Positions 1-33,589 of a stretch of DNA of 48,475 bases are shown piece after piece; positions within the stretch are counted from its first letter, which is position 1, and the number at the start of each line of letters is the position of its first letter. The notes under the pieces were generated by a model that saw only the letters and a list, made by a program, of their open reading frames with translations, made no database searches and was not told the DNA's origin. Source of the stretch: Anaerovoracaceae bacterium (GTDB lineage Bacteria > Bacillota > Clostridia > Christensenellales > Borkfalkiaceae); the NCBI GenBank assembly GCA_963599785.1, contig CAVBZJ010000001.1, positions 17,701 through 66,175 on the forward strand. The letters are read 5' to 3'. A program made the position numbers and the translations under genes.

Positions 1-1928
1 GCCGCAAGCGTTATAATGAAAACCGTCGTCGTTTCCGCGGAATAAAGATTGCCCGCGCAACCGCTTTTTTCGGGTTTCTCGTCTTCCGCCGCCTCGTATT
101 TCTTTCCGAATTCCCCCGTTACCGTCACGTCCTTATCGAAGTCGGTATAAAAGGTTTCGGTCGGATAACCGATTGATTTTCCGTTGACGACGACCTTTTT
201 AAGCTCGTATCCCTCTTCCGCGGTAAAGATAAAGCGTATTCTTCCGTTTTTGATTTCGTACTCCGCCTTGCCGTTGCCGACGGAATCCGCGATAACGCGA
301 AGCTTTCTTACGAACACCTTGAAATGCAGATCCGCGGTCGGGTTTTTCACCTCGTAAGAATTATCCTCCGTAGCGACCGCTTCGCCGTTTAATTCCGCGC
401 GTTCTACCGTATAGCCCTCGTTCGTCAATATCTTAAACGTTACTCTGCCGTTTCTCTTAACGTAATAAATCGTCGCGCCGTTTTCTTCGTTTACTTCGGT
501 TTCTATTCCCGAAAGCTTATAGCTTATCTCGAAAACGAAGTTCTCTTTCAACTCCGCCCTGAATTCGTTGCCTTCGAGTTTTTTCTCATCGCCGTTCACG
601 GTGAAGGTTTTTACCGAATACCCCGAGCTTGGCTTTGCTGTAAATATTACCGTTCCGTTTTCCACTCTGTACTCCGCCGTTCCGCCGCCGCCCGCAACGT
701 TTACGGTCACGTCGTAAAGGTCGGAATAATCGTAAAATCTGTGGCTTTCGCTCCCTGCATAGCTTACGGAAATTCTGTCGCTGCCTTCCGAAAAGGAATA
801 AACGGTGTTCTTGTTTTCGACCGCCGCGGAAAATTCGGTTACGTTTCCTATTTCCGCTTCTTCGCCGTAGGTGTTCACGGAAATCGTTATTTCGGATATT
901 AAAGACGGTCCTTCGCCGAATACCGAATAAGGGAGACACAGCGTTCCGTTTTTGCCTTTTTCAATCGCTATCCCCTCGCCGTCGGCTATTACCTTGCCGT
1001 ATTCGTCGTTACCCGTCGCGAAGGAATATTCCCTGCCCTTTGAATAATCGGGAACGTAGGTTACGCCGCCGTGCTTTAAGGCTATTTTCACCTTTATCCC
1101 CTTTTCGCCGAGCGCGTTGAAATTAAAAAGCATCGCCGAACGCGCGTTTATCGGAGATGAGGACGAAAGGGTTATATCCGCAAAGCCTTCCGTTTTTATC
1201 ACGAGCGATTTAAGCCGCCCGTTTTCCGCGTAACCGTCCGTTACGTCGTACACCGTTTCGAGATTTTCGGTAAGAGTACATTTTTTCGCAGAAAACGCCG
1301 CGTTCGTCAGATTGCCTTCTTCGTCGAACCCGAGATTATCGAAGTCGGTCACGCTTCTGCCGCTTGTCGCGTTCAAAGCGTCCGCAAAGAACACGTTCCG
1401 CAATAAATAATGGTTTTTATGCGAGGTGTCGCCGACGAGCGTTATCTCCTTTAAGGTCACGTTCTCGTCGAGTACCTTTTTAAGCTCTATATAAATCTTG
1501 CCGTTAAAGCCCGTTTTCACGAGATACCAGCTCGTGTCCTCGAAGGGCTTGTTCGGCACGGTGAACCCCGCCGTGGTTACGTTCTCTATCCTTTCGCGGC
1601 TGTCGAGGTTATGCGCGTTCCCCGCCGAATCGGTAATAATAATCTGATAAAACGCGTATATATCGCCCGAAGCGTGTTCTACCGAATCCACCCGCATATC
1701 CAGCACGAGATATTCGTCCGTCGTTATCGGCATTTCGCCGTCCGCCGTTATTTTTACCTCCGCTTTTACGCCCGTAGCGTCGATTTTTATGCCCTCCGCG
1801 CGGACGTATCTTTCGGAAAGCTTGGCAGAATCCGCAAAAGCCGTAGTTTTTATGCTCGCCGCGCCCGCCGCAAGAAGCAGAATAAGAGAAAAAATCAACG
1901 TATACAGGATTTTAGTTTTCGCTTTCAT
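1..1928 (-). CDS. Secreted surface protein, 3' end cut by the window edge (at least 642 aa). It has a signal peptide, an N-terminal domain paralogous to the 1912..4008 and 5268..7382 products, beta-sandwich repeats, and the start of an SGC-motif C-terminal anchor.
   Basis: Absent from the ORF track because no stop codon lies in the window. ATG at 1928..1926 follows GGAGGAG (1934-1940) after 5 nt. I hand-translated 1861-1928 (MKAKTKILYTLIFSLILLLAAGA), 901-959 (KGKNGTLCLPYSVFGEGPS), 541-599 (VNGDEKKLEGNEFRAELKE) and 1-70 (EKSGCAGNLYSAETTTVFIITLAA), all in one frame without stops. Confidence 0.75.
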   Translation of the reverse strand, partial: MKAKTKILYTLIFSLILLLAAGAASIKTTAFADSAKLSERYVRAEGIKIDATGVKAEVKITADGEMPITTDEYLVLDMRVDSVEHASGDIYAFYQIIITDSAGNAHNLDSRERIENVTTAGFTVPNKPFEDTSWYLVKTGFNGKIYIELKKVLDENVTLKEITLVGDTSHKNHYLLRNVFFADALNATSGRSVTDFDNLGFDEEGNLTNAAFSAKKCTLTENLETVYDVTDGYAENGRLKSLVIKTEGFADITLSSSSPINARSAMLFNFNALGEKGIKVKIALKHGGVTYVPDYSKGREYSFATGNDEYGKVIADGEGIAIEKGKNGTLCLPYSVFGEGPSLISEITISVNTYGEEAEIGNVTEFSAAVENKNTVYSFSEGSDRISVSYAGSESHRFYDYSDLYDVTVNVAGGGGTAEYRVENGTVIFTAKPSSGYSVKTFTVNGDEKKLEGNEFRAELKENFVFEISYKLSGIETEVNEENGATIYYVKRNGRVTFKILTNEGYTVERAELNGEAVATEDNSYEVKNPTADLHFKVFVRKLRVIADSVGNGKAEYEIKNGRIRFIFTAEEGYELKKVVVNGKSIGYPTETFYTDFDKDVTVTGEFGKKYEAAEDEKPEKSGCAGNLYSAETTTVFIITLA

Positions 1929-4008
1929 CTTTTCTCCTCCTTAAAAGCAATATTGCCGCGCCGATAATCGCTGCCGCCGTCACAGGCAGTCCCGCCGTCA
2001 GCGCGGAGTTGCAGCCGCCCTTTTCGTTGTCGTTCGTTTCGGGCTTCTTTTCGACCTTCGTGAATTTCACGTTAAGATACGCGCCCGAAAGCAGCTTGCA
2101 TTTGTATTTACCGTTTTTCGGTGTTATCGTTTCGCCGTTTAAGCTTATTTCCGCGATTTCGTACCCGTCGTCTGCAACTATCGTAAATTCCACGCTTTCG
2201 TCCGCTTCGTCGAGCGTATAGTCCGCGTAACCGTTGCCTTCCGCCGTAACGCTTGCAAGGCTCTCGAAGATAACCGCCAGATAATTGTCTTTATCGTTTG
2301 CCGCAGTCACCTTTCCGTCTGTCGCCGAAATTTTTTCGCCGTTCAGATACGCTTCCGAAACCGTATATCCGAATTCGGTTTTTATCGAATATTCCACGGT
2401 CTTGCCGTCCTCGGATTTCTTCGGCGTTATTTCGCCGCCGTAATTCGCCGTGAACGAGCTTTTATATTCTCTGAATTCCGCCGAAACCTCGTAATCCTTA
2501 TCGAAAAGCGCGCGGTATTCGCCGTTTTCGTCCGCGTTGACGGGCTTGCCGTTCACCGTGAGCGAATAAAGATAACAGCCCGCGTTCGGAGTGGCTTTGA
2601 TAACGAGTATTTCGCCCTCTTCCCGATAAACAAGGCTTCCGTTTTCGGTCTCCGCAAGCTCCACTCTTCTCCCGCCGAAGGTCGCGATTATCGTTATATC
2701 CTCGCGGTATTCGGTTATCGTGTATTCCCCGTTTTCAAATTCTTCCGTTATATCTTTTCCGTTCAGAGTAACGCTTTTAAGGCTGTATCGCGCGTCCGTC
2801 GGGCGAACCTTTATCGTAACGCTTCCGTCGGCGTTCACCGTCTTTTCCGCGCTGCCCATATTCTCCGAGCCGGCGGCGACTTCGCATTTTATCTCCGCCT
2901 TTTCAAACACCGCGCTGATCTCGATATTGCCGTTTATTACTATCTCCGTGCCTTCGATTTCCCGCCCGTTCGCGGTTATTTTCACCAGCTTATACCCGTT
3001 GTCGGGAACGGCTTTGACGTAAGCAATAGTTTTGTCGCCGTTTTTATAATAGGAAAGCGTGCCGTTTTTCACCGTTTTGTCCACGCTCACCGCGTATTCG
3101 AGACATTTTGCGGAAAACTCCGTAAGCGTTGCTAAATTCGTTCTGTACACGCCGTTCACAAGCTGATTTTTTACGTCGCTTCCGTTGCTTTTCACCGAAT
3201 AGAAATACCAGCCCGATTCCGCTTTGACCTCTATTTCCGCCGTTTCGCCCTTTTCGGCGTATTTAACAGAAGTTCCCACCGTTTGCGAAACGATTCTTTT
3301 ACCGTTTCTCGTAAGCGCGTTGTTTATTATTTCCGTGCTTTCGGGAGTAAACGCGCGTTTGTTTTCGTTATTTTTTCCTTCGCAGTAGAAAATCTCCCTG
3401 ACGTCGTACGTCGCGTAGTGCGTCATATCGGAAGTAAAGGATATTCCGTCCACCGCAACGCTTTCGGTTAAAAAGTCTCCGAGGTAAATATAGAACGTTC
3501 CGTCAAAGCCCTTTTTTATAACGTAATAGCTCTGCGGCTCGGCTGTCGTTCCAGAAGTTTTTTTGTTCGCTACCGAATAGGCTTTGCCGTCCGTCGTGTA
3601 GCACTTTATTCTGTCGGCGGTAACTCTTCCGCTCCCGCCCGTCGCGGCAAAATCCTCTGCGGAAAAGCCCTCGGGCATAGTTTTTATAAGGTTATAATCC
3701 GAGGGAAGCGCGAGCGGATATTCTGTTTCCCCGTTATAAAGGGATATTCGCATATACGCGAACGCGTCCGCAGTGTTTTTTATGTCTTTCACGTTGAAAG
3801 AAACGGCGATAAAGCCGTCCTTATTCACGGTCGTCTCGGCAAAATCGTATCTTAATTCCGCCAGCACGCCCTGCGCGACTATTTCGTCCGCGGCGGAAGT
3901 CTCCGCTTTCGCGGCGGTCGGAACGCTTATTGCGAAAGCCGCCAAAGCTCCGCATATTATAGTTACGGCAAGGGCTGAAATTTTTCTTAAACGCATCGGT
4001 TTCCCCAT
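1912..4008 (-). CDS. Secreted surface protein (698 aa). It has a signal peptide, an N-terminal domain of unknown function (YYVIKKGFDGTFYIYLGDF), about five divergent InlB-B-repeat-like modules, and a C-terminal GGC motif followed by a TM helix and an RRRK tail.
   Basis: ORF track. The N-terminal hydrophobic signal is ISALAVTIICGALAAFAISVPTAAKA. Repeats follow the pattern G..V.[IV].A.P..GY. The C-terminus is EKGGCNSALTAGLPVTAAAIIGAAILLLRRRKDESEN. Confidence 0.8.
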   Translation of the reverse strand: MGKPMRLRKISALAVTIICGALAAFAISVPTAAKAETSAADEIVAQGVLAELRYDFAETTVNKDGFIAVSFNVKDIKNTADAFAYMRISLYNGETEYPLALPSDYNLIKTMPEGFSAEDFAATGGSGRVTADRIKCYTTDGKAYSVANKKTSGTTAEPQSYYVIKKGFDGTFYIYLGDFLTESVAVDGISFTSDMTHYATYDVREIFYCEGKNNENKRAFTPESTEIINNALTRNGKRIVSQTVGTSVKYAEKGETAEIEVKAESGWYFYSVKSNGSDVKNQLVNGVYRTNLATLTEFSAKCLEYAVSVDKTVKNGTLSYYKNGDKTIAYVKAVPDNGYKLVKITANGREIEGTEIVINGNIEISAVFEKAEIKCEVAAGSENMGSAEKTVNADGSVTIKVRPTDARYSLKSVTLNGKDITEEFENGEYTITEYREDITIIATFGGRRVELAETENGSLVYREEGEILVIKATPNAGCYLYSLTVNGKPVNADENGEYRALFDKDYEVSAEFREYKSSFTANYGGEITPKKSEDGKTVEYSIKTEFGYTVSEAYLNGEKISATDGKVTAANDKDNYLAVIFESLASVTAEGNGYADYTLDEADESVEFTIVADDGYEIAEISLNGETITPKNGKYKCKLLSGAYLNVKFTKVEKKPETNDNEKGGCNSALTAGLPVTAAAIIGAAILLLRRRKDESEN

Positions 4009-4275: not shown

Positions 4276-5109
4276 ATGAAGTTCAAGTACCTTATAAAAA
4301 ACAGCCTGCCGAAGAACGTTAAAGTTCCGCCGCACGCTCACAACTGCTACGAGTTTATTTTTTACGTTTCCGCCGAGGGGGAAATTCAATATAACTCCGA
4401 CCACAGAAGCTCGTCCAAAGAAAATCTCACCTACACGCCCTTTTCGGGCAAAACGATTAAAAGCGTGCCGTTTGCGGACAAATCTTTCATCATTATCCCG
4501 CCCGACATAGTCCACAACGAGATTAACCGCAAAAAATCCTCGGTCGTCGCCATAGGCTTCGACGCGGAAGGCGAAGAAAAAAAGCTTATAGAAGGCTTGA
4601 TGCTCAAATCGTTCGACGATACCTTTAACATTCAGAGCGCGGTGGACGAAATTCTGAAAGAGTTCTTTGAAGCTCCCACCCATTCGGGACTGATGATAGA
4701 AACGCTCATCACGCAGATTCTTATCAGAATATCGCGCCTGACGCTTAAATCCAACGAACAGGTGGACTTTAATTTTATAAGGCAGTATCTCGACGAATAC
4801 TATATGACCGACGTGGACGTAGACGCGCTTTCGGGACAGATAGGCTACTCCAAATCTCATTTCCGCACGCTGTTCCGCAAAAAATTCAACGTCAGCTTTA
4901 AGCAGTACATTCTCAATAAGCGGCTCGAATACGCCGAATCCGCGCTGAAAAACTCTTTTCTTCCTCTCAACAAAATCGCAACGAACAGCGGCTTCGAGGA
5001 CTATTACCAGTTCAGCGTGTTCTTTAAGAAAAAAACGGGGCTTTCACCCAAGGTTTACCGCTCCAAATACGGCAAATCGATAGACGAAAACGGAAACGAT
5101 TTCAAATAA
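4276..5109 (+). CDS. AraC-family transcriptional regulator (cupin-like N-terminal domain plus AraC-type HTH)
   Basis: N-terminal PPHAHNCYEFIFYVS resembles a cupin motif. The C-terminal region (SGQIGYSKSHFRTLFRKKFNVSFKQYILNKRLEYAESAL...ATNSGFEDYYQFSVFFKKKTGLSPKVYR) is a typical dual-HTH AraC signature. Confidence 0.85.
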   Translation: MKFKYLIKNSLPKNVKVPPHAHNCYEFIFYVSAEGEIQYNSDHRSSSKENLTYTPFSGKTIKSVPFADKSFIIIPPDIVHNEINRKKSSVVAIGFDAEGEEKKLIEGLMLKSFDDTFNIQSAVDEILKEFFEAPTHSGLMIETLITQILIRISRLTLKSNEQVDFNFIRQYLDEYYMTDVDVDALSGQIGYSKSHFRTLFRKKFNVSFKQYILNKRLEYAESALKNSFLPLNKIATNSGFEDYYQFSVFFKKKTGLSPKVYRSKYGKSIDENGNDFK

Positions 5110-5146
5110 AATAAACGCGGAAGAAAAAGCTTCCGCGTTTGTTTTT
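5105..5146. terminator. Bidirectional intrinsic terminator
   Basis: An 11-bp stem pairs 5113-5123 (aaacgcggaag) with 5130-5140 (cttccgcgttt) around a 6-nt loop. An A-run lies on the left and a T-run on the right. It closes both the AraC gene (+) and the small ORF / 704-aa gene unit (-). Confidence 0.7.
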
Positions 5147-5261
5147 ACATTCCGCCGTCCCAAAGATCGTCGTATTTTACGAAATTGTCGCAAGAGACGC
5201 AAAGCACGTCCGATACGCTCGTTATTATTTTCGCTTCGGGTTTAAGATATTTCGTTTTCAT
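5145..5261 (-). CDS. Unannotated 38-aa small ORF (MKTKYLKPEAKIITSVSDVLCVSCDNFVKYDDLWDGGM), paralog of 33400..33516
   Basis: Hand-translated. ATG 5261 lies 6 nt after the TAG of the 704-aa gene and 9 nt after GGAGTGGAG. The stop TAA (5147-5145) abuts the terminator. It has the same length and motif pattern as the second small ORF. Confidence 0.6.
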   Translation of the reverse strand: MKTKYLKPEAKIITSVSDVLCVSCDNFVKYDDLWDGGM

Positions 5262-5267
5262 ATGCTT

Positions 5268-7382
5268 CTACTCCACTCCCGCAAATTTTTTCAGTAACGC
5301 AACCTGCTCTTCTTCGAGCGTTTCGCCGAGATTAGAAAGGGCGATTTCCGCAACCGATTTCACGCTTCTTGCCGCAAGCTCGTAGTAAACCGTCGTGGTT
5401 TTGCCGTTTACCGTTACGGTCACGAAAGCCCTTGCGGTAAATTCTCTTTCATATCTGCTTTCGGGAATATCCGTCAGCACCGCGTTGAATTTCTTCTCCG
5501 TCTCGGTATCCGAAAAGCTTATTTCGCCCGTTCTCGCCGCGTTTTCCGTGTCCAAAGTCAATTCTTCGCCGTCGCCGATAAGGTCGGTCGGGAGTAATAC
5601 AACCCCTATTTCAACCGTCGCGAGCGAGCTTAATTTATCGAAGCCCTGTTTATCCGCCGAATATTCAAACCGAAGCCCCGCAGGCTCGGTAAGTCTTATC
5701 GACGCGCCAAGAAATTCTATATCGAGCTTAACGATCACAGCCGTCGTGTCGGAGTTTACGACGATTTCGTCCTTCGCGAAGTAAAGCTTTCCGTCTATTT
5801 CGTAACCGATAAAGCCCGTTTCGCCGTTTTCGGGCAAAACGAAGGTTTCTCCCTCGGTTATCTCGGTTTCCGCTCCGTCAACCGTGATTTTCACCTTGAC
5901 CTTCGCGGTAAAATTCACCGCGATTTCCAAATCGCCGTCCGTTTCCGCCGTATAAACGCCGCCCGAAAGCTGAACAAGGCTTCCGTTTACGGTCAGCTCG
6001 CCCTTATACCCCGTGGGCGCGACGGGCGTTATTTTCGCGTTGCCTTCTGTCAAATCCACGGTAACGCCGCAATTCGCTATCGTTTCCGCGTAAGAAACGG
6101 CAAGCTTAACGCCGTTGGTTTCTATATTAGCTTTGTCGGTAAAAATTTTGCCTTCGGTGTAATCTATCCTCGTTTTGTTTTCGTCCTTTACCGAAGAACA
6201 GAAATACATTTGTCTTATGGTATAATCCTGAATATATCCTTTGTTCGGGTGATAAATTTTTATGCCGTCGAACGCCGTTTCGGAGGTAAAGAAGTCTCCG
6301 AGCCAAATATAGAACGTTCCGTCGAACGCCTTTTTGATAACGTAGCTGCTTGCGGAGGCGTTACCCTTATTCGGTACGGAATACGCCGCGCCCTCGCTCG
6401 TATAGCAGTTTATTCTGTCGCTCTTCACCCTTGCGCCATTCTGAAATTGAGAAGCGGTCATACCCTCGGGCAAAGCGGTTATGCTCGCGAAGTTTTGCGG
6501 CAACGAAAGATTATAATAGGTTTCGCCCGATTTAAGATATATTTTATAGTATAAATAGGTGTCGGTAGTTCCCGAAAGGGAATCTATCTTCATATCTATC
6601 GCGAGGAAGCTTTGATTCGAGACGGTAATCGGCGAATTGAATCCGTATTCGACGGTTTCCTGTCCGGAAACGGAATTTACCTTCGTTTCGCCCGTTTCAA
6701 ACCATAAAACGTCGCCGCTCGCAACGTAATATTCGTCGCCTTCGGTATTTTTCACGATATTTTCCGCAAAGAATATATCGCCTATGGTGAACGTAGGCTT
6801 GTGAGTGCCGTCCGTATTCACTTTGAGGTCGGACATTTCAAACGTTCCGTCGAAATAGTCGGGAAGATAAATGAACACCTTTCCGTTAAAGCCCTTTTTC
6901 ACCGTGAACCATACGGTGCTGTCGGTCACGCTGCCGTTGACCTTATTCGGCATCGCGTAGCCCTTTTCGGTAGTGAGATAGTTTATTCTGCTGCTCGAAA
7001 TTCTCACTCCGCCTGCTCCGCCGTAATAGTCGGCTTTGGTAAAGCCTTCGGGGTATTCGGTTGCGGAAGTCATATAATCCGCCGCCATAACGAGCAGTTT
7101 TTCCGCCCCGCCGCCGCATATCGTAAAATGGAAGGGCGTAAAGGTATCGGTAACGCCCGAGCTTATCGTGTTAAGTTCTATCGCGAGGTACTTATACTTT
7201 GCCGTGTCTACGGAAAGCGTTTCCACGCCCGATATGGTTTTCGCCGCGCTTGACGATAGCGTAAACTCGCGTTCGATGTTCTTTGCTTCGGCGGTTTTTA
7301 TGGCGCACACGCCCGAAACAACGACTATCGAAAATAACGCGACGAGTATCGCCAGCATCGCTTTTTTCATTGTTTTCGTCAT
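5268..7382 (-). CDS. Secreted protein (704 aa) with two copies of the N-terminal surface-protein domain and a C-terminal GASIRL..GLRF domain shared with the 780-aa protein
   Basis: The signal peptide is MLAILVALFSIVVVSGVCAIKTAEA. The duplicated motifs are VWFTVKKGFNGKVFIYLPDYF and SYVIKKAFDGTFYIWLGDFF. The C-terminal LGASIRLTEPAGLRFEY parallels EIRASGTAGLRFTS in the 31044..33386 product. Confidence 0.8.
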   Translation of the reverse strand: MTKTMKKAMLAILVALFSIVVVSGVCAIKTAEAKNIEREFTLSSSAAKTISGVETLSVDTAKYKYLAIELNTISSGVTDTFTPFHFTICGGGAEKLLVMAADYMTSATEYPEGFTKADYYGGAGGVRISSSRINYLTTEKGYAMPNKVNGSVTDSTVWFTVKKGFNGKVFIYLPDYFDGTFEMSDLKVNTDGTHKPTFTIGDIFFAENIVKNTEGDEYYVASGDVLWFETGETKVNSVSGQETVEYGFNSPITVSNQSFLAIDMKIDSLSGTTDTYLYYKIYLKSGETYYNLSLPQNFASITALPEGMTASQFQNGARVKSDRINCYTSEGAAYSVPNKGNASASSYVIKKAFDGTFYIWLGDFFTSETAFDGIKIYHPNKGYIQDYTIRQMYFCSSVKDENKTRIDYTEGKIFTDKANIETNGVKLAVSYAETIANCGVTVDLTEGNAKITPVAPTGYKGELTVNGSLVQLSGGVYTAETDGDLEIAVNFTAKVKVKITVDGAETEITEGETFVLPENGETGFIGYEIDGKLYFAKDEIVVNSDTTAVIVKLDIEFLGASIRLTEPAGLRFEYSADKQGFDKLSSLATVEIGVVLLPTDLIGDGEELTLDTENAARTGEISFSDTETEKKFNAVLTDIPESRYEREFTARAFVTVTVNGKTTTVYYELAARSVKSVAEIALSNLGETLEEEQVALLKKFAGVE

Positions 7383-14023: not shown

Positions 14024-17000
14024 TTATTCTATTACGAACGAATAGAGAGTGTGTCCGTGCGCGGGCTGCTGCGCGTTTTTCACCTCTACGAGAGAAACGG
14101 TATACCCCGAAAGATCGTAGGTATAAGCGTTTTCGCCCGCCTGCGCAAAGAAATACGCCGCCGTGGTGGTCCGCACCGTCTCGGTAATTCCGAACGAGGA
14201 AAAGTCCGCTTCTCCTATCGCCCCGCCCGCGGTCGGCTCTATCTTCCATATATAAACGTCTCCGCCCCGTCTTCTGTCAACGAGACCGTCTTTCAGCCCC
14301 GAGTGAGAAACGGCGAGCGTTCCCGTGCCGTTTTTCTTCACCGTATAAATATCCGCTTTATAAAGAGTGAAATCCTTTTGCGGCGCGGCGTAGCTTTCGA
14401 GCGGCTTATCCGCCGCGTCGGTTTTTTCCGCCGCCGAGCCGTAGTTCTTTTTATCGAACGCGAATTTATAAGCGTTCACAGAAACGCTCGCTTTAAGACC
14501 GCTTTCCGTTATCCCGAACCCGTCCGTGTTTATCGGAAGAGTTACGACGAGAATAAATTCCTCCGCCGTCGCGCCCGCACGCACCTCGTCCGTGATCGCG
14601 CTTCCGTCTTTTAACGAGGCAAAGGCGGAAATCGGAATTTCCGAAGTCTTTTCCGAAAGAACGTACCCGCCCGACCAGACCGTGACCGAATTTTTACGGT
14701 AAAAAAGTCTTAAAGAGGTGTTTTCGGGGAGCTTTATTTCTCCGAAATCGAAGGTAATCGCGCCCGTTTCGTCGTTTTCGCCGTAGTTCACGTTGTAAAC
14801 CGCGGTAAACTCTCCGTCCGAATACAGCTCGGTTTCCTCGTGCCGCACCGCGTCGCCCGTGTAAAATTCCAAGGAATCCGCGTATACGACGAGGTATATA
14901 TACCCCGAATCGTACGCGCCGAGTGATTCCGCGGAAATTTCGTAAGAATATTTTTCCGCGCCGTCCGTAAATTCCGCGGTTATATCCGCGTACGTTCCGT
15001 CCGAAAGTCTTACGAACGCGTTAAACCTCGGCTCGCCTTTCCAACTATCCGAAACGCTTATAGAAAATCCGAACCCGTTCTTATCGTCCGCGGGAACTAT
15101 ATAGCCGTCTTGAAGAGAGGTCGCGGGGAAAGAGGATTTAACCTCCGCTCCCTCCGGAGCTTCCACCGAAACGTTATACGTCCAGCGCGCGTAGAAACGA
15201 AGCGAGCCGTTGACTATCGCCGAAGAATCTTCTTTCAGCTCCTCGAAAGACTTGCCGTAAGCCGCCAGCTCGGTCGCGCTTAAAACCTGATAAAAGCCCA
15301 CGAAATCGAAGCCGTACCGAGAAGCCGCAACCGATTTTATCCACTCGTTCAGCCCTTCTATATCGAGAGAAGCGTAAGTCGCGTCCGCGGGAACTATCGT
15401 TTTGAAAAAGTCGTACGAGCCGAAGTTCGTCAAAAACACGAGCGAATAGGTTTTCGCGTAGGTAACGCATATGGTAACGCCGTCGCCGTTTATTTCGGTA
15501 ACGAGCTTTTCGGGCAGAACGAAGTCGTAAGAATAGCTCAAATACGCGTTCGCTTTTGCGGAAATAACGTATTTAACCCCTTTATAAACCGCTTCCACGG
15601 TATCGTCCTTCCACGTTCCGTTCACCGTCGTTTCGCCTATTTTAAGGCTCAGCGCGGGTTTTAGCCCGTACCCCGGTTGTGCGGAGGAAGTAAACCCGAA
15701 AGAGCTGTCCTCTATCATTTTTCTGTCCGAAGAAACGTCCGCGCCCGAAAGCTCGAAGTCGAAACGCGTTTCGTCCTTAACTTCAAGCACTACGGTATCC
15801 GAAACGTTTTTGCCGAGGACGGTGCAGGTAACGACGTAATCGTTATAACTCGAAAGCACTACCGTACCGTTCGTCGCAACGTTCGTGCCGCTGTAACTCG
15901 TTTCTACTATATAAGAACGCTTCGTCTGATATTTGTACTCTATTTTTTCGGAAAATCTGACCGTATCGCCCTTGACGTAAACGTAATGCCGATAGCCGTC
16001 CTCCGCAATGTAAGAATATATCGGCGGCGTTCCCTCGTCGGGGGTTATCGTAAGACTCGTTATTTCGTTCGGAACGAATTCCGCTATAACGCCGTGGGTT
16101 ATTCCGCCGTATATGAATTCCATAACGATTATTGTCGGCTCTTTAAGGGTTGCGGTGCTTTGTATGCGGCAAACGTTCTGAACCCCGTCCGTTCCCTCTG
16201 CCGTTATCGTCGCCCTGCCGTTAAAGGTGGAAATCTGCGCTACCGAAGAAGGCTTTGCCGCGATAATCGCAAGCGCGCGTTCCGAATCGCTCATCGAGGA
16301 ATCCGCCGCGAGCGAAACGTCGTACAACACGGCTTTCACGGGGAAATAGTTCATTCCCTGAGGAAGCACTCTTATAAAATCGACGGTTTTTTCGTTGCCC
16401 GCTTCGTGACGGAAATAAACGTAATTCGCGCTCGTTCCCTTATGAACGACGGCGTAACCGTCGGTGTTCTCCGAGGTAAGCTCCTTGCCGTCCTCGCCCG
16501 TCACTTTAAGAGAGAAATTTTGCGCGGCGGGATTTTCCACCGTCACGGGATAAGAGCAAAGCCTGTATTCCTTTCCGCCGACTGTCGCATATACGCTTAT
16601 ATAAGCCACTCCCGCGGAAACGCCCGTCACCTTAACGCCGTTTGCGTCCGTCGTCACCGAAGCGATTTTTTCGTCGCTGCTTTTTACCGAAATAATCGAG
16701 TCCGCGCTCGTGATTTCGGGATACGCGGTAAAGCTTTCGCCCTTCGATATGCTTTTCGCGTTCTCGCCGTAAGAAACGAGATGTAAAGCCGCGCCGCTCG
16801 TAAGTCCCGAATAGTTAGAAGCGTTTCTGTAAACGAGATCCGTTCCCGCATTCTCCGAAACGTCGTAATTTTCGGTCATAGAAATATTGCCGTTCGGCTT
16901 ACCAGATGGCGGGTGACCTATACCGCCCGTCCACGAGCCTTTTCCGCCCGAAGCGTGAACGGTTGCGTCCGAAACGTTCTTCCTGACCGTCCATCCTTCC

Positions 17001-20000
17001 TTCGCCCAAGCGAACACGCCAGCCGCGCTCGCCTCTTCGTTGACGGATACCGAGCGCACGTCCGTACTTATCGCGGCGCAGCCCTCCACCGTCGCGCGCT
17101 GAACGAGTCCCGCAACTCCGCCCGCATACGTTTTTCCCGAAACGCTGCTTGCCGTCACGCTCGAATTCGTGACCGTGCTGTTTTGCAGATACCCCGTAGA
17201 AGCCCACCAGATACCCGCGACTATTCCCGCCGCATAGGTAGCCATTTTGTCCTCGCCGATCGATTCAACAATACAATCCTTAACGGAGATATTTTTAATA
17301 TACGCCGAGCCGTTTTTACCGGAGACGCTCGGATTTGCGAAAACGCCCGTCGCCCCGCCGACGTATATGTCGTATCTTATATCGCCCGTCTGCGCGTTGC
17401 TGTAAGCCTTTCCCGCAACGTGCATATCCGAAACGCTTCCGCCGCCGAGAAGGGTTTTCGTCTGCGTTCTCCATCTCCAAATCGCGCCGATAAGCCCGCC
17501 CACGCTCGCCGTATCGGGATTATTTGCGGACTCGAAATAAACTACGCTTTTCGTTTCGGAATTTCCCGAAACGTTCAAAGACGTACATTGCACGTCTATG
17601 GTAAGTCCTATCGCGCCGCCGACGTAGCCCTCACATTTGAGGTCGTTGTTGTCTCCCGAAGGAAATCCGCCGTTCTGCACGCCGTATACGAAAAATTCGG
17701 AATCGCCCGAAAGATTGTTCTTTTTATTCCATTCGACGGTAAGCCCGCTTATTTCGTTAAGTCCCGCCGCAAAGCCTATCGCGCCGCCCGCGCAAACATT
17801 GTTTCCGCCTATGCCCCGCCCTCTGTCGTCTATCGAATCGAAGGAGTAGCACGCCGCTTCTACGAGCGACTGCGAGGAATAGGTTACTTTAAGGTCTTTT
17901 ATCTTCCCCGCGAAGGTCTCGTTAAAGCTGCGCACGTTCTGCAAGAGTCCCGTATAGCTTATCGCCATACCCGCGTACCCGCCCGCGCAGATTTCGCCGA
18001 TAGCCGTAGAACCGACCTCTCTGTACGCGCGGATTTCGCCATTTTTAACCGAAAATTCCACGTTGTTCACTTCGTAACCGCAAGGCAGGACGGAAGTATA
18101 CCCGCCCGCGCAAACGGAATACGGCACGCCGACCGCAGTAGTTCCCGAACTCTTTTTCGCCGCCGAGGAAGAAGCCGACTGCACCGCCGTGACCGAAAAA
18201 TCGTATTCGTGAGCGGTTATGTGGAATTTCACCGTTTCCTTGCCGTCCGTCGTAAGCATAAAGCAGTTATATCCGAACACGCCGCCCGCGTACGCAGGAC
18301 CTACGCCGTTCTGCACTGCGGAAATATCCGCGGAACACTCGAAAATATATCTTCCGCGCTCGTCCGAAAGGTTTTCTTCGTTAAAGCCGTGAGTTATATA
18401 TTTAATGCCGTCGGTATAAACGTAGCCTATCGCGCCGCCCGCGAACACCGAACCCGAGCTTAACCCGTCCTGCGACTGCGCGCGTATGCGTATTCCGCCC
18501 GACTCCTCGTCTCTGTCCGCGCTTTTCGCAAAGCGTATGCCGGCGACGGAAATTCCGACAGAGCTGTCGGAAAGATTGCTTTGGCGGTAAATCGTGCCGC
18601 AGAACCCGCCCGAAACCGCGGAAGCCGAATAAACGTCGAGCTTTTCGGGGTCTATATCCGCTTTTTCTTCGGAAGCGTCGTTCGCTATAACCGACTGAAC
18701 GTTATATTCGCCCTGAACCACTATATCCACGTCGCGGATAAAAATCGACCTTACCTCCGAAAACTCGGGAAGAGGCGATTCTCTCACGACCACTACCCCC
18801 GCGAATCCGCCCGAAACCGCAGAACCCGCAATATCTCCGAGAGAGTTCGCAAGCACCATGGCCGCTTCGCCCTCGATGACTACTCCGTCCGCATAAGCGT
18901 TCTGCAAAACCCCGCAGAAGCACCCCGCGTATACCGAAGCCTTTTCTCCGTAAGTAACGCCCGAAACGTTGTTATGCTCGCCGTCGTAAACGGCGTCGCA
19001 CCACTTTTCCACGTCCGAGGAGCATACGCCGAAAACGCCGCCTATATAAAGCGACGCGTTCTGCACTCTCGCGGAAACCGAAACCTGCGACTCTATGCCG
19101 TCGAATACTATGTTTTTGCCCGCAGTACCCGCAAGCCCGCCCGCGTTTATACGCGTTTTATCGGTTACTGCTGTATCCGTCGCCATAGTGTTTACGGCTA
19201 TATACCCCTGCACCATAGCGTTTCTTACGAGGCACGGCTTGTCGTCCGCGCCGTAAATCATAGAGAAAAAGCCGTAGTCCGCGATATAAATATCTTCTTC
19301 GCCGACGAAGTTAAACTCTTCGTAAGCGTGAGCGGTTCTCGTTATACCGATAGTCGCCGCATACCCCGCGAAGTCGAAACAGCCCTGAAAAGGCACTCCG
19401 CCCGAAGAGCGCGTACCCAGCCCGTAAAACTCCGAATTATTGATAAAAACGTTGGTCGTAAGCCTGAAATATCCGTAACGGAGCGATTCTATATCGCCGT
19501 TTTCCGCGCCGAATCTGCCGAAATCGGAAGCCGTACCCACGCCGCGCAGAATCCTTGCAAGCGCAAGCACGTCCGCTTCCTTGGAAATAAGGTACGGATT
19601 GCCGAAATAACTGCCTTTATCCTCCGCGTAAGGCTCGGTCGTCTCCACTTCTATGCTTATCTCGCCCGAAGCGGGAACGGTAAAATTTCTTATCACGGGA
19701 ACTTCCGAAGTCGTTGCGTTCGTACCGCCTTCGCCGCTTATCGTCATCGACTTGAAAAGCTTTTTTTCGTTCACAACGGTGACGGTGATTTTTCCGTTCG
19801 CGGGAACGACGTAGCTTCCGTCCTCGTTTTTCTTAACGCCGTCGCCGCCGACGTACACTTCCGTCTCCGCGCCCGTCGGAACTATTACGGAAACAGTCGC
19901 GGAATAGCTCGTGCGGGTGGAAAATAATATGGCAAAAAACGCGCACGCCACGCACGCGCAGACGAGTATTTTCAGAATTCTCGATTTTAATTTAGATTCT

Positions 20001-26225: not shown

Positions 26226-28262
26226 TTACTTAACCGCCTCGAAAACGATATTGAACACGGAAACGTTATCGCTTTTTGCAACGTGAACAGAGAACGCGTT
26301 TCCGCCGGTTATATCGAACTCTCTCGAAACGGTCTTCCCCTCCGTCCATACGGGAGCGGTATTCCACGCTTCGCCGTCGGGATAAAGCGACATATTGTCG
26401 CCCGCCGTGGAATAAGTAACTTTTATTTTCGTATATCCGTTCTTAATAAGCCAAGCTATTGCCTCCTGCTTAAAGGAGATAACGTGGCTTCCGCTCGTTG
26501 CGAAATCAAAGCTGTTTTCGCCGACCGCGGTAACGGTCACGCCGTCGTCGTACGGATTGAACCACGTCGCGGGGGAACTGTAATCGGGAGCTTTAACGAG
26601 TTCTAACGTAATAGCAAAGCCCGGAGTCGTTCCGTCGTCTATTCCGTACGCAACCGTAATGCCGAAATCTTCTATCGCAAGAGAAGCAATTTCAAAATCT
26701 CTCGCAAGGGGCTTACCCTTTCCCGTCCAGCCCCACGAGCTGTCGTAACCTTTGCAAAGATAGCCTATCGACCTGCCGTTATCGCTGTTTATGGAAGCGG
26801 TTATTCTTAACGTATCGAATTCGGTCTGTTCTTTTATTTTTGCGATGTATTCCGCTCGTATCGCAAGCGCGCCGTTGGTTTCGTTCTTAACGTTCGGGAA
26901 AACGTATTTGCCTTTTTCGTAAGTAAAGCTTTCGCCCGAAGATATATAAGTCCTCGGATCGCCGTCTTTATAAGCTATGCCCGCAACGACCGCAAGAGAG
27001 AAGCCGTCCGCGGCAACCCATTCGCCCGCTTCGGGGTTATTCGGATCGCAAGGCAAGCCTATCCAGCCGCCTATCGTCTGCACGGATACGCCGAACGCAG
27101 TCGCGTCCTTATCCGCTTCGAGATTTAAGGTAACGCTTATTTGATAGTTATTTGCTTCTTCTCCGTACATAAACTGCGTAGCCATATTTGCGTTCTTTCT
27201 GCCGAAGGTAAGGGTGAGCTGATTATAACCCGCCTTTAAATACTCGTTCACGCCGTCTTTGTTGACGGTAAAATCAAACGTTTTCGCGTTAGAAAGCACG
27301 TCGTAGTTCGCGGTGAACTTATAAACTCCGTCCGTGAATTCTTCGCCGTAAGCGGATTCCGAAACGCTGAAAATATTAGCTTTTGTATAATGCTTGTTGC
27401 ACGCGCCGCAAACGCCGTTCGCTCCGAAAGAATGAGAAAGTCTGTCGTTTTTGCGCTCGGCTTCCTCCGTTTCGCAACGCTCGCATTTTCTACCCGTCAT
27501 AGAACCGTGTTCGCAGGTAGCCGCTTCGGAAAATTCTTTCCATTCGTGACCGAGCGCGGGTTCGCCCGCCTCGTCGTAAACCGCGTAGCACACGCCGCAA
27601 TGATAAGAAATATATCCGTCGTCAACGCAGGTCGGCTCGAATTCTTCTACGATATAATCGGGCTGATGACCTTTCGGGGGAATAGCTTCCGAATATTCTT
27701 CGGTACAACCCTCCGTCGTGCAATGATAAAACTCCACTCCCTCCTCGGTACAAGTGGCTTCCACGCGTTTTTCCGTCTCTTCCGCATAGTTATGCGCAGG
27801 TCTGTCGGTTATCGCGCGTTCCTCTTTTTTACCGCAACGCGAGCAAACCTTTTCTTCTTTGCCGTCTTTTATGCAGGTCGCTTCTTCAACGACCTTCCAT
27901 TCGCCGTCGTGACCGAGCGCTTCGCCCGAAGTCCTTTCTTCGGTCTTGCCGCAGCGCGAACATTTACGTTCTTCCTCCGCCGCCGCTTCGCAGGTCGCGT
28001 GGGTTTTAACCGTCCATTCGCCGAACGAATGTCCGAGCGCGTTTACGGTTTCGGTCTTTTCTTCGCCGCATTCGGAGCATTTATAAGTAGTGCTTCCGCC
28101 CGCCTCGCAGGTTGCTTCAACGGTAGAGATTACCTTATAATCGTGCGTGCAAACGTCGTCCGTTTTGCCGCCGTCCTCTTTTTGGCACGCGGCAAACCCC
28201 GCCGCGCAAACCGCGCACATAACGCTTAAAAGACAAATCAGGGTTTTAGTAAATTTTTTCAT
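26226..28262 (-). CDS. Lipoprotein with about six Cys3-His repeat modules and C-terminal domains paralogous to the 780-aa protein
   Basis: The lipobox is AGFAACQK. Repeats follow the pattern ATCEAGGSTTYKCSECGEEKTETVNALGH. The C-terminal part shares DPRTYISSGESFTYEKGKYVF...GYDSSWGWTG and WF..SFDF..GYTKIKVTY modules with the 31044..33386 product. The ATG at 28262 follows GGAGG after 6 nt. Confidence 0.75.
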   Translation of the reverse strand: MKKFTKTLICLLSVMCAVCAAGFAACQKEDGGKTDDVCTHDYKVISTVEATCEAGGSTTYKCSECGEEKTETVNALGHSFGEWTVKTHATCEAAAEEERKCSRCGKTEERTSGEALGHDGEWKVVEEATCIKDGKEEKVCSRCGKKEERAITDRPAHNYAEETEKRVEATCTEEGVEFYHCTTEGCTEEYSEAIPPKGHQPDYIVEEFEPTCVDDGYISYHCGVCYAVYDEAGEPALGHEWKEFSEAATCEHGSMTGRKCERCETEEAERKNDRLSHSFGANGVCGACNKHYTKANIFSVSESAYGEEFTDGVYKFTANYDVLSNAKTFDFTVNKDGVNEYLKAGYNQLTLTFGRKNANMATQFMYGEEANNYQISVTLNLEADKDATAFGVSVQTIGGWIGLPCDPNNPEAGEWVAADGFSLAVVAGIAYKDGDPRTYISSGESFTYEKGKYVFPNVKNETNGALAIRAEYIAKIKEQTEFDTLRITASINSDNGRSIGYLCKGYDSSWGWTGKGKPLARDFEIASLAIEDFGITVAYGIDDGTTPGFAITLELVKAPDYSSPATWFNPYDDGVTVTAVGENSFDFATSGSHVISFKQEAIAWLIKNGYTKIKVTYSTAGDNMSLYPDGEAWNTAPVWTEGKTVSREFDITGGNAFSVHVAKSDNVSVFNIVFEAVK

Positions 28263-28287
28263 AAAATTCCTCCTATCTTTCAACTCA

Positions 28288-29460: not shown

Positions 29461-31005
29461 TCACTCTCGGGGAGCTTTCAGCATACGCTCCGCTATCCTA
29501 TTGGGAGTTACGAACACGCCTTTGCCCGCACCGATATTGAGAGTAATTTTGCCGTCCGTAAGCTCGGCGGTCTTTTTAACTCCGTTTTCTATATAGCTCA
29601 CCTGTTTATACCCCGCGCCGAAGGTTAATGTTACGGCGTTGGTTCTTTCAAGTCTCGGATCGTCCGAATTGACTACCATAAACCCGAATCTGCCGTTTTC
29701 GTCTTTCAAACACCCCGCGATAGCGTCGTAAGAAGAGGTCATCGCGGTAAGAACGCCGCCCGCATAAGAGGTCGTGCCGTTAAACACGTTCGCCGTAGCG
29801 GTCGTGCCTTGGGAATAAGTCGTTCCCAGCCATTTATAGCCCGCCATACGCGTTGCCGCTTCGGTTATTTCCGCGTTGGCGTTTTTAACTCCGTCGTAAA
29901 CCTCGGTCGCGACCGACTTATACGTTCCGTCGGACTGCAATTCCCACATATAGGGCGCGTCCGTAAACCATTCCGCGGTCGTCTGCGTCATCGGCTGCAT
30001 AAAGGTGAAGTAAGCCATTCTTTCATACCCGTACGCAAGCGCGGTATAAAACTGATAGGTCAGCTGCTGCTCCGAAACCTTGCCGTAATAGGTATAAGAA
30101 GAAGTCGCCCCTTTTCCGTTTATCTCGTCGTACTTGGTTTTGTTATAAAATCCCGTAGATTGAACGCACAAGCCCTTTTTGAACCCGTTTTCTTTTGCAA
30201 GTCTGGCGAATATTTCAAGGTTCTGGAAATATTGACTTCTTATCGCATAAGAGGTTTCGTAGCTGTATTTGTAATTAAGCACCGTTCCGCTTCTCGTTCT
30301 CGTAATCGTTTCGGTAAACGGATAGTAGTCGAAGGAAAGATACTCTTCGCCCGTACCCGTAAGCCCCGCGATATACTTTTCGACGTAAGTCGTGAACTGT
30401 GCTTCGGTAAGCCCTTCATCAGTGCTGTAATTTGTATCGTCGTCGGAGCTACCCGCAACGTGAACCTCCGCCGCGCCCATACCGAGCAGCGAGCCGTGAA
30501 GCATATACCCGTCGCGATAAACGCCGAGTTCGTTCACGAGCCATTGATACCAAAGGTTATAGGTATCCGCCATATACCCTCTCGGTTCGTCGCGGAGAAT
30601 AAACCCGCCGAAGCATTTGAAAGTTTTAAGATGATTGTAAAATTTCGTTATATTGATTTTCGTCTGAGCCTCGGAGTGAATGGCATTGCCGCTCATAGCC
30701 CCTTCGAGATAGCCGAGCTTTACGAGAACCCTTGCTTCCTCGTAAGCCACGTCGTACGCGTCGCAATAAGCCTCTACGAGATTTAATAATTTAATCGCGT
30801 CGGAATTAGCGTAATTGCCGTCTGCGTCTGTTTCCGAATAGCCGCTGTCTGCCTCGTAACCTGCCGATCTGTATGCAATGTAGTCGGCGTCGTCACCGCT
30901 GATGAAGGTAAAACCCGCATCGAAATACGCTTTTACGTCCTCTACGGTGGCGATATGGTATTCGGCTCCGCCCGTAACGTTACTTACGAGCGTGCCGTTT
31001 TCCAT
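29461..31005 (-). CDS. Cytoplasmic hypothetical protein (514 aa), putative TIM-barrel glycoside-hydrolase-like, distant paralog of the 37809..39341 product
   Basis: It has no signal peptide. The layout resembles the 510-aa lipoprotein (FGGFILRDEP.., SFDYYPF.., ALAYGYERMAYFTF.., C-terminal beta-sandwich). The RBS is weak. The family assignment is not secure. Confidence 0.35.
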   Translation of the reverse strand: MENGTLVSNVTGGAEYHIATVEDVKAYFDAGFTFISGDDADYIAYRSAGYEADSGYSETDADGNYANSDAIKLLNLVEAYCDAYDVAYEEARVLVKLGYLEGAMSGNAIHSEAQTKINITKFYNHLKTFKCFGGFILRDEPRGYMADTYNLWYQWLVNELGVYRDGYMLHGSLLGMGAAEVHVAGSSDDDTNYSTDEGLTEAQFTTYVEKYIAGLTGTGEEYLSFDYYPFTETITRTRSGTVLNYKYSYETSYAIRSQYFQNLEIFARLAKENGFKKGLCVQSTGFYNKTKYDEINGKGATSSYTYYGKVSEQQLTYQFYTALAYGYERMAYFTFMQPMTQTTAEWFTDAPYMWELQSDGTYKSVATEVYDGVKNANAEITEAATRMAGYKWLGTTYSQGTTATANVFNGTTSYAGGVLTAMTSSYDAIAGCLKDENGRFGFMVVNSDDPRLERTNAVTLTFGAGYKQVSYIENGVKKTAELTDGKITLNIGAGKGVFVTPNRIAERMLKAPRE

Positions 31006-33386: not shown

Positions 33387-33399
33387 CTTTCCGCCCTCC

Positions 33400-33516
33400 T
33401 TAACCCCAGTCCTCGAAATCGGAGAAATCGTTGTCGCCCAAAGCAGGCGACATCGAAATGACGTCCGCGCTGTTTATCAAAAGCAGCGCAACGCGTGGTT
33501 GTTCATAGTGTTTCAT
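33400..33516 (-). CDS. Unannotated 38-aa small ORF (MKHYEQPRVALLLINSADVISMSPALGDNDFSDFEDWG), paralog of 5145..5261
   Basis: Hand-translated. AGGAGG lies 9 nt upstream of ATG 33516. The stop TAA (33402-33400) overlaps the RBS of the 780-aa gene. Confidence 0.6.
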   Translation of the reverse strand: MKHYEQPRVALLLINSADVISMSPALGDNDFSDFEDWG

Positions 33517-33589
33517 TATTATTTTCCTCCTATAATAATTTTTCTTTCTTATTTTCTCGGCTTTTCAGCCGTTTTTTCCGTAGGTTTGT

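Follow-up and report, generated by a model that had tools for sequence, protein, structure and literature searches.

A Clostridial family of small peptides with a leader-like N-terminus, encoded beside secreted proteins that share a C-terminal domain

Organization of the p1 and p2 loci

The stretch of DNA analysed here, which we call the window, comprises 48,475 nucleotides of the Anaerovoracaceae bacterium assembly GCA_963599785.1 (contig CAVBZJ010000001.1, positions 17,701 to 66,175), and our subject is a pair of 38-codon genes on its minus strand, termed p1 and p2, each of which adjoins a gene for a large secreted protein (Table 1). Both open reading frames (ORFs) had been proposed in a first-pass annotation made from the letters of the sequence, and our minus-strand translations are identical to those given there. 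The translation and termination signals that it had listed for p1 are likewise present, the ATG lying 6 nt past the TAG of the 704-aa gene, and the motif that it had drawn up for the two peptides fits p1 and p2 and no other ORF of the window.

Table 1. Positions of p1, p2, their partner genes and other features of the window
Feature	Position	Strand	Remarks
p1 (38 codons)	5145..5261	minus	stop codon 5145-5147; product MKTKYLKPEAKIITSVSDVLCVSCDNFVKYDDLWDGGM
p1, putative leader (residues 1-23)	5193-5261	minus	MKTKYLKPEAKIITSVSDVLCVS
p1, putative acidic core (residues 24-38)	5148-5192	minus	CDNFVKYDDLWDGGM
p1, Shine-Dalgarno region	5271..5279	minus	GGAGTGGAG, the final codons of the 704-aa gene; nearest GGAG 9 nt 5' of the ATG
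704-aa secreted partner of p1	5268..7382	minus	N-terminal signal peptide; C-terminal domain at about residues 520-704 (5271-5825)
p2 (38 codons)	33400..33516	minus	stop codon 33400-33402; product MKHYEQPRVALLLINSADVISMSPALGDNDFSDFEDWG
p2, putative leader (residues 1-23)	33448-33516	minus	MKHYEQPRVALLLINSADVISMS
p2, putative acidic core (residues 24-38)	33403-33447	minus	PALGDNDFSDFEDWG
p2, Shine-Dalgarno GGAGG	33526..33530	minus	9 nt 5' of the ATG; invariant in 6 aligned sequences
780-aa secreted partner of p2	31044..33386	minus	C-terminal domain at about residues 560-780 (31047-31709)
Intrinsic terminator-like hairpin after p1	5113..5140	minus	11 pairs, then a T-run; 4 nt past the p1 stop codon
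714-aa secreted calcineurin-like phosphoesterase	33590..35734	minus	directly upstream of p2
514-aa protein, third gene conserved in p2-type loci	29461..31005	minus	no signal peptide, no Pfam match
Archaeal-type (SipW-like) signal peptidase I	22030..22629	minus	TIGR02228 (67.8 bits; cut-off 51.85)

That each short ORF adjoins a gene for a protein with the same C-terminal domain was also part of the first-pass annotation and stands, although the arrangement of the two loci differs: p1 lies downstream of its partner gene and p2 upstream of its own. The order in p1-type loci is nucleoside hydrolase, 704- or 712-aa protein, peptide and convergent AraC gene, and the terminator-like hairpin after p1 is common to p1 and the AraC gene of the window (4276..5109, plus strand); an equivalent hairpin lies downstream of the p1 orthologue in one of the related loci that we retrieved (L030; such loci are cited by number). 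In p2-type loci the order is phosphatase or AraC gene, peptide, a secreted protein of 644-1308 aa that begins after a 13-nt gap or within a 4-nt overlap, and a protein of the 512-aa type. The Shine-Dalgarno sequence of the 780-aa gene (33394-33399) meets or overlaps the TAA of p2, the ATG of the 780-aa gene following 13 nt after p2, and in L016 and L023 the 780-aa orthologue overlaps the peptide gene by 4 nt. In a further locus (L021) the peptide begins 12 nt after a gene for a 790-aa protein with the same C-terminal region. A read-through fusion of p1 to its partner was considered and rejected because the frame relation at the junction varies, the two genes being in frame in the window, separated by a 4-nt gap in L030 and overlapping by 4 nt in L033.

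Evidence that p1 and p2 are coding

A word-indexed protein search was run with p1 and p2 plus two upstream codons and, owing to the word index, returned close relatives only; all of these are exactly 38 aa in length and their contigs keep the synteny of the window. For p2 five haplotypes were obtained (84-100% identity), all of 38 codons and in the same gene order. The first 24 codons hold 9 variable sites, of which 7 fall at third and 0 at second codon positions; in the final 14 codons variation is spread evenly over the codon positions (4/3/3) with frame and length constant. Orthologues of p1 at 97%, 66% and 55% identity also have exactly 38 codons and the same synteny; in the latter two cases the gene upstream encodes an orthologue of the partner protein, of 712 and 704 aa (84% and 68% identity), respectively. 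For p1 a pN/pS ratio of about 0.5 was obtained over the whole gene, with about 0.33 for the last 15 codons, which form the putative core. The substitution patterns that the first-pass annotation had named as a check are thus of the coding type for both genes.

Peptide and partner genes are linked by gaps or overlaps of 4-13 nt and carry strong Shine-Dalgarno sequences, and scans of the window with Rfam and for tRNA genes gave no match. On these grounds of length, synteny and substitution pattern we regard p1 and p2 as real genes, whose coding status is established short of direct detection.

A family of small peptides with a conserved N-terminal module

The direct similarity of p1 and p2 is not significant (local score 22, shuffle p=0.15, with unrelated window ORFs scoring higher); we therefore do not take it as evidence, and base homology on the intermediates recovered by profile searches. 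A profile built from the p1 and p2 groups yielded 16 matches at E<=1e-3 among 1.84 billion proteins, and 10 of the 16 are proteins of 33-42 aa (one of them mis-started) that align from residue 1 and bridge p1 and p2, an example being MKKYIKPDLELNLIKVSDVLNVSDKDDNFGDLDNWED. Extension of the profile added MKKYETPKVELMELSESDVLTASNG... and MKKYEKPEMNITTLKNTDVITVSGG..., and reached peptides of the form MKKYE.P...DVIT.S. The paralogue pair proposed by the first-pass annotation is accordingly upheld through bridging sequences, but not by the pairwise match, which does not rise above chance. Neither Pfam nor NCBIfam gave a match for p1, p2 or ten of their relatives.

Metagenome contigs searched at the DNA level for MKKY..P-x10-DV.T yielded 88 stretches, 85 of which are ORFs of 30-59 aa encoding 79 unique peptides, and those ORFs that were inspected are preceded by a Shine-Dalgarno sequence of the AGGAGG type. 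The family pattern that emerges is MKKYxxP-x10-DV[ILVM]TxS followed by a variable core, or, position by position, a leader with Y4, P7, hydrophobic residues at 9, 11 and 14, D18-V19-[ILVM]20-T21 and S23. The cores range from 7 to 36 aa, and among the unique peptides they are acidic in 73 of 79 and contain Trp in 41. A hidden Markov model (HMM) of the leader, trained on the 79 metagenome peptides only, placed p2 first (E=0.006) and p1 second (E=0.023) among the 1035 ORF-starts of the window. The leader of p2 reads K2-H-Y4-E-Q-P7-R-V9 and that of p1 Y5-L-K-P8, and both show the K-x-Y-x-x-P motif followed by hydrophobic positions. As to the cores, that of p2 (LGDNDFSDFEDWG) resembles KGDANDFENGWY, a member of a subfamily ending in GWY that is linked to maturation clusters (see below), and that of p1 (SCDNFVKYDDLWDGGM) resembles SDNFVDDPDWGM (DNFVDDPDWGM; L044 and L059), which comes from loci without detected cluster genes.

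Judged by these profile searches, p1 and p2 belong to a large and unnamed small-peptide family of gut and rumen Clostridia, and the proposal that a real small-protein family is present is borne out by the 33-42-aa relatives aligning from residue 1, the conserved length and synteny, and the coding-type substitutions. A narrow alignment of the C-terminal domain found three loci in GTDB genomes, all of them metagenome-assembled genomes of uncultured human-gut Clostridia, and the wider family came from gut, rumen and other metagenomes. One distant member (P0029; L036:334-2142) is located 16 nt after the genes of two secreted proteins, one of which has two dockerin-type repeats (DANLDGIIDTKD..., DVDGVQGIDTKD...), which places the family beside cellulosome-type components as well.

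Maturation genes beside relatives of p1 and p2

Genes of maturation type lie beside the peptide in 13 of the 85 loci, often together with two tandem precursors. They encode a 230-270-aa protein with weak matches to HprK-related and ScmC families, an 87-97-aa PqqD protein (PF05402, E=1e-17 and 4e-16), a SipW-type signal peptidase fused to NTP_transf_5, and/or a 562-aa MsbA-like ATP-binding cassette (ABC) exporter. The PqqD protein, a discrete element of the kind that recognizes the leaders of peptides made on ribosomes and modified after translation (RiPPs) and hereafter referred to as the RiPP recognition element (RRE), was found beside superfamily members in L050, L066, L071 and L103. Tandem precursors occur in the cluster-linked loci L086, L090, L092, L105, L123, L124, L066 and L070; the first is longer (41-78 aa) with a Thr/Pro-rich middle, mostly of the form MISKAYEK.DF.I.EF.LEDVLT.S.VVHTTT..., and the second is short and ends in GWY. 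The longer precursor escaped the pattern scan because it begins with MISKAY and not with MKKY.

This gene set recalls the linear polyphosphorylated peptides (LPPs) of Bacilli, a RiPP class described by Popov et al. (Nat Commun 2026; PMC13381572), in which the genes encode the precursor LppA, the kinase LppK, the RRE LppB, the SipW-like peptidase LppS, the NTP-transferase LppN and the exporter LppD. According to that source, in the parts of it drawn upon here, the discrete RRE LppB binds the YxxP leader, LppK polyphosphorylates Ser in the core, and LppS cuts off the leader only if LppB presents it; the leader consensus is YxxPxVLxHQxIxFET|xxS, with cleavage after T-1 and the phospho-Ser at core position 3. 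The class was described only in 2026 and only in Bacilli, and its role is given there as unknown. Since the gene types found across these 13 loci of the Clostridial family are the core set of LPP clusters (PMC13381572), the conserved N-terminus can be read as a leader of the RRE-binding type. The likeness of p1 and p2 to RiPP leaders, which the first-pass annotation had called loose, is in this respect closer than supposed, the same N-terminal module standing beside a PqqD element, an HprK-related kinase, a SipW-type peptidase with NTP_transf_5, and an ABC exporter.

As far as the parts of PMC13381572 drawn upon allow a comparison, the two groups have in common short precursors in which the N-terminal K-x-Y-x-x-P leader is conserved and the C-terminus varies greatly, a conserved Ser directly after an acidic residue some 14 positions past the Tyr, and, for the cluster-linked relatives of p1 and p2, the same five types of adjoining gene. 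They differ in the leader box, which is [DE]V[ILVM]TxS in the Clostridial family versus FET|xxS in LPP with the spacing off by one residue. The full LPP consensus is likewise absent from p1, p2 and the Clostridial superfamily, which have [DE]V[ILVM][T/S/C]xS and lack both H-Q and F-E-T; the Ser lies 19 residues after the Tyr in p2 and 18 in p1. The Clostridial cores are much shorter, at 7-36 aa (about 15 aa in p1 and p2) versus 45 aa, as well as acidic and Trp-containing. Uncultured gut and rumen Clostridia are the hosts, and these go unmentioned in PMC13381572; maturation genes are missing from the surroundings of p1 and p2; and the coupling of the precursor to a secreted protein that bears one specific C-terminal domain has no counterpart in the passages drawn upon. 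Because leader residues and register differ, and because Clostridia go unmentioned there, we consider the Clostridial peptides a distinct branch and not the published LPP family.

A second class of RiPP has to be compared. Paeninodin-like lasso precursors of Bacillota also carry a leader motif, [Y/W]xxPx[L/V/I], that is bound by a discrete PqqD-type RRE, and an HprK-like kinase and a nucleotidyltransferase occur in Bacillota lasso clusters as accessory genes (both points from the parts of PMC13381572 drawn upon). Unlike these, the loci of the present family contain an enzyme of the signal-peptidase type, and neither a macrolactam cyclase nor a B2 cysteine peptidase turned up there, no dedicated model having been run. 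Taken by its leader and by the genes beside its cluster-linked members, the p1/p2 superfamily is related to LPP and lasso-type RiPPs.

The secreted partner proteins and their C-terminal domain

Both the 704- and the 780-aa protein begin with a signal peptide, and they have a C-terminal region in common (27% identity, E=1e-9), as the first-pass annotation had claimed; within the window only these two proteins carry it. The association extends to the metagenome loci, where for 51 of the 85 peptides the start codon lies 4-45 nt past the end of a gene on the same strand, the distances having their peak at 10-20 nt. The complete proteins encoded upstream carry Sec signal peptides, and their Pfam domains, where there are any, are Flg_new, Flg_new_2, F5/8-type-C, Big_2, VWA or M64.

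To follow the domain across these loci we used an HMM of its final 110 residues, seeded from neighbours of the p1 and p2 type only. It matched 13 of the 65 nearest-upstream genes versus 0 of 180 others (Fisher p=1e-8), and after iteration 24 of 65 versus 0 of 180 (Fisher p=4e-16). Every match is the nearest upstream same-strand gene of a peptide or of tandem peptides, and cluster-linked loci are among them (L066, L103, L105, L106, L057, L123 and L124). On the question raised in the first-pass annotation, whether homologues always neighbour a gene with the domain, matches occur only in the nearest upstream gene, and in 24 of 65 such genes. As the matches fall in loci with as well as without cluster genes, the conserved unit is a secreted protein ending in the C-terminal domain together with a leader-bearing peptide. 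The junctions described above indicate translational coupling of each peptide gene with the one for its secreted multidomain protein.

Pfam, NCBIfam and PDB sequence searches gave no relative of the 704-aa protein or of the C-terminal domain, and PDB searches by sequence and by profile were equally negative for the domain and for the 514- and 780-aa proteins. An AlphaFold model of the domain from two sequences had a pLDDT of 36.8 and is unusable.

p1 and p2 as candidate satellite precursors

Inspection of the window for enzymes that could mature p1 and p2 gave a negative result, in keeping with the first-pass annotation, which had seen no maturase gene there. Pfam was run on 29 long window ORFs (the 1993-aa ORF at 14024..20005 was left out), and none of the 29 encodes a cluster-type kinase, RRE or nucleotidyltransferase. 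As cluster enzymes are missing both from the window and from up to 10 kb on either side of their relatives, p1 and p2 would be orphan precursors. We lean towards the view that they are satellite precursors of an LPP-like system, matured in trans and working with the partner protein. Such an arrangement has a parallel in the prochlorosins, in which ProcA precursor genes away from the maturase are served by one ProcM. As in that case, many diverse cores follow one conserved leader and most precursor genes do not lie beside the enzymes; unlike it, each Clostridial satellite is tightly coupled to a specific secreted-protein gene, and maturation in trans is here something that we infer.

The course of events that we envisage starts from the leader (residues 1-23), which consists of MK-x-Y-x-x-P, a beta-strand-like hydrophobic pattern and then [DE]V[IL]xxS. 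In relatives with cluster genes the discrete PqqD-type element presumably binds this leader and presents the peptide to the HprK-related kinase and the SipW-type signal peptidase, and the leaders of p1 and p2 would be bound by an RRE encoded elsewhere in the genome. The [DE]V[IL]xxS box may hold both the cleavage site and the phospho-acceptor; the acidic, Trp-containing core of about 15 aa (residues 24-38) would then be released and exported, and might act with the C-terminal domain of the co-expressed secreted partner. The unit of domain protein and peptide would have its maturation and export genes next to it in some genomes and stand alone in the window. A further step, speculative and with the balance of probability rather against it, is that protein and peptide form a new two-component surface system of Clostridia, in which one cluster would serve scattered satellites and the phosphorylated peptide would be the ligand or anchor of the C-terminal domain.

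Several observations weigh against the satellite-precursor view. The leader-HMM scores of p1 and p2 are modest, being E-values calculated within the window, and both peptides carry Cys or Ser where the family has an invariant Thr21. Their box is DV[IL]xxS and not the FETxxS of LPP (PMC13381572, in the parts drawn upon), with the spacing shifted by one residue. Searches by tblastn and small HMMs found no HprK-like kinase, PqqD-type RRE or NTP-transferase (NTP_transf_5) in the window or in L001-L036 (up to 10 kb per side), nor any S26 peptidase, for which the HMM was of limited sensitivity as it missed the window's own SipW-like gene; an MsbA-like or other dedicated exporter is likewise absent from the window and these loci. 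Maturation genes are also missing from 14 of the 18 metagenome loci in which downstream sequence reaches at least 2.5 kb, which suggests that most family members could work without modification. Lastly, the sequencing runs that hold the locus are labelled as genomic 454 libraries and were not used as RNA evidence.

The scarcity of maturation genes also favours the main alternative account, in which the peptide is an unmodified small subunit or chaperone, cytoplasmic or used as translated, that binds its partner directly (for example through its N-terminal hairpin, added as a beta-strand to the C-terminal domain) and might help to fold, hold or inhibit it before export, the RiPP-like leader reflecting shared ancestry only. 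The pairing with the domain protein is tight and stoichiometric-looking in either gene order, most loci have no maturation genes nearby, and the p1 core is under purifying selection, all of which this account would accommodate. We nonetheless judge it unlikely, if by no means negligible, for the partners have Sec signal peptides and the peptide has none, the RRE-type leader is the most conserved part and is kept even where the partners are unrelated outside the C-terminal domain, and the same leader module occurs inside true maturation clusters. The conservation of the leader across very different contexts, with a C-terminus variable in sequence and length, likewise makes it improbable that the ORFs are cis-acting translational devices (regulatory upstream ORFs, arrest peptides, or coupling or mRNA-stabilizing ORFs) whose product is without function. 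The position of p2-type ORFs, 13 nt upstream of the partner gene or overlapping it by 4 nt, would suit such a device, and the conserved acidic-plus-Trp C-terminus near the stop codon recalls some arrest peptides; but an upstream ORF precedes the gene that it controls, whereas p1-type ORFs and most of the superfamily lie 3' of the partner gene, and p1 is followed directly by a terminator.

On a lasso-peptide reading of p1 and p2, the first core residue would be G or C and the macrolactam ring would be closed through an Asp or Glu at position 7-9. The YxxP leader is present, and in the possible cores GDNDFSDFEDWG and CDNFVKYDDLWDGGM bulky aromatics follow an acidic residue at 7-9, the compatible registers being G27...D33/E35 in p2 and C24...D31/D32 in p1, given a cleavage site that is putative. 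The 12-residue core that results for p2 is very short, however, and neither the kinase nor the RRE nor the S26-NTP transferase has a homologue either in the window or less than 10 kb from relatives of p1 and p2. No cyclase or B2 peptidase appeared in the window Pfam results or in the listed families of the metagenome neighbours (25 of 46 downstream), no lasso-specific model having been run, and the genes beside the cluster-linked relatives are those of the LPP set, in which there is no cyclase; on this evidence a lasso product is very improbable. That p1 and p2 are merely chance open frames in untranslated regions is scarcely credible. The insignificant pairwise similarity of the two is what such a view could invoke, against which stand the significant family matches among 1.84e9 proteins, the conserved length, synteny and Shine-Dalgarno sequence, the concentration of substitutions at third codon positions, and the fact that 85 of the 88 pattern matches in metagenomes are short ORFs.

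Three further candidates were tried and rejected. A toxin-immunity pair does not fit a p2 that lies upstream of its partner, a peptide that is very small and a C-terminal domain that is conserved and not polymorphic; Tat hitch-hiking is contradicted by the lack of a twin-arginine motif in either partner signal peptide; and a double-glycine bacteriocin or pheromone by the lack of GG after the leader in p1 and p2 and of a C39 or ABC_membrane exporter among the Pfam-scanned window ORFs.

Other genes of the window and variant loci

The Pfam content of the window is made up of sugar ABC transport proteins, AraC regulators, glycosidases, phosphatases, two-component and cyclic-di-GMP proteins, and several secreted proteins without Pfam domains. 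Its SipW-like signal peptidase is the only window enzyme of a class used in LPP maturation, namely that of the leader peptidase. It lies 11-17 kb from p1 and p2 in an unrelated-looking operon that shows no linkage to them in related loci, and the cluster-type peptidase HMM does not recognize it; a link to p1 and p2 is unproven, and the enzyme may serve merely its neighbouring small secreted proteins and the 1993-aa protein. Around it (20020..24305, minus strand) are four secreted or membrane-anchored proteins of 332, 252, 259 and 259 aa without Pfam matches, and the operon, upstream of the gene for the 1993-aa protein, resembles a fibre or matrix locus of the tapA-sipW-tasA type, systems of SipW-processed secreted proteins known from Bacillus. 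The large secreted proteins of the window (26226..28283 and 1912..4008 among them) are mosaics. In the 685-aa protein the N-terminus matches the Cys-rich N-terminus of the 714-aa phosphoesterase, and the C-terminus matches the N-terminal repeats of the 780-aa protein; the 698- and 704-aa proteins have a middle module in common.

Beside p2-type peptides a phosphatase domain (Metallophos or Y_phosphatase3) recurs, as seen in the 714-aa protein of the window, in L016:8703-9875, in L024:5591-7954 and in the C-terminal part of L012:6946-9552. This is of note since the related LPP peptides are polyphosphorylated, and could equally reflect a glycan-degrading locus. A 780-like secreted protein and a 514-like protein are fused in L028:4876-8802 into one ORF of 1308 aa, after which comes a 668-aa paralogue that has no peptide gene of its own.

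Among p1-type loci, L001 (6394-9994) and L002, a close relative, have the 704-aa orthologue reduced to its final 263 codons and adjoining a serine recombinase and a helix-turn-helix gene, a mobile-element insertion; the p1 orthologue behind the shortened partner is retained with one amino-acid change. These two loci also contain a third, weaker family member (L001:18215-18343 and L002:11748-11876; MKKVYEKTYCKIIFCTEEDVLTVSPGGNDNELPIIPIEDLLK, HMM E=8e-7), about 8 kb past the position of the window's left edge, which lacks the Pro of YxxP. It follows two fragments of 240 and 112 aa, the first matching the N-terminal part of a lipoprotein whose intact form, of 613 aa, occurs in L030.

Significance

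An RRE-dependent precursor of the LPP or lasso-like kind is a known kind of element. What seems undescribed in the libraries and literature covered is the Clostridial variant of the leader, cores that are short, acidic and Trp-bearing, the prevalence of orphan precursors and, most of all, the systematic coupling with a secreted protein that carries a dedicated C-terminal domain. In gut Clostridia such genes of 30-60 aa are routinely left uncalled or unnamed by genome annotation, and the family described here points to a much larger, sequence-distinct Clostridial branch of LPP-type RiPPs in human-gut and rumen metagenomes. It assigns a partner to a widespread domain that had no Pfam, NCBIfam or PDB sequence match, and offers a lead on the role of the peptides, which would be to partner surface proteins of glycan-degrading loci. 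If the two-component arrangement of peptide and C-terminal domain were true, it would be a peptide-based counterpart of cohesin-dockerin or SLH (surface-layer homology)-polymer anchoring, and would give the LPP class a biological role.

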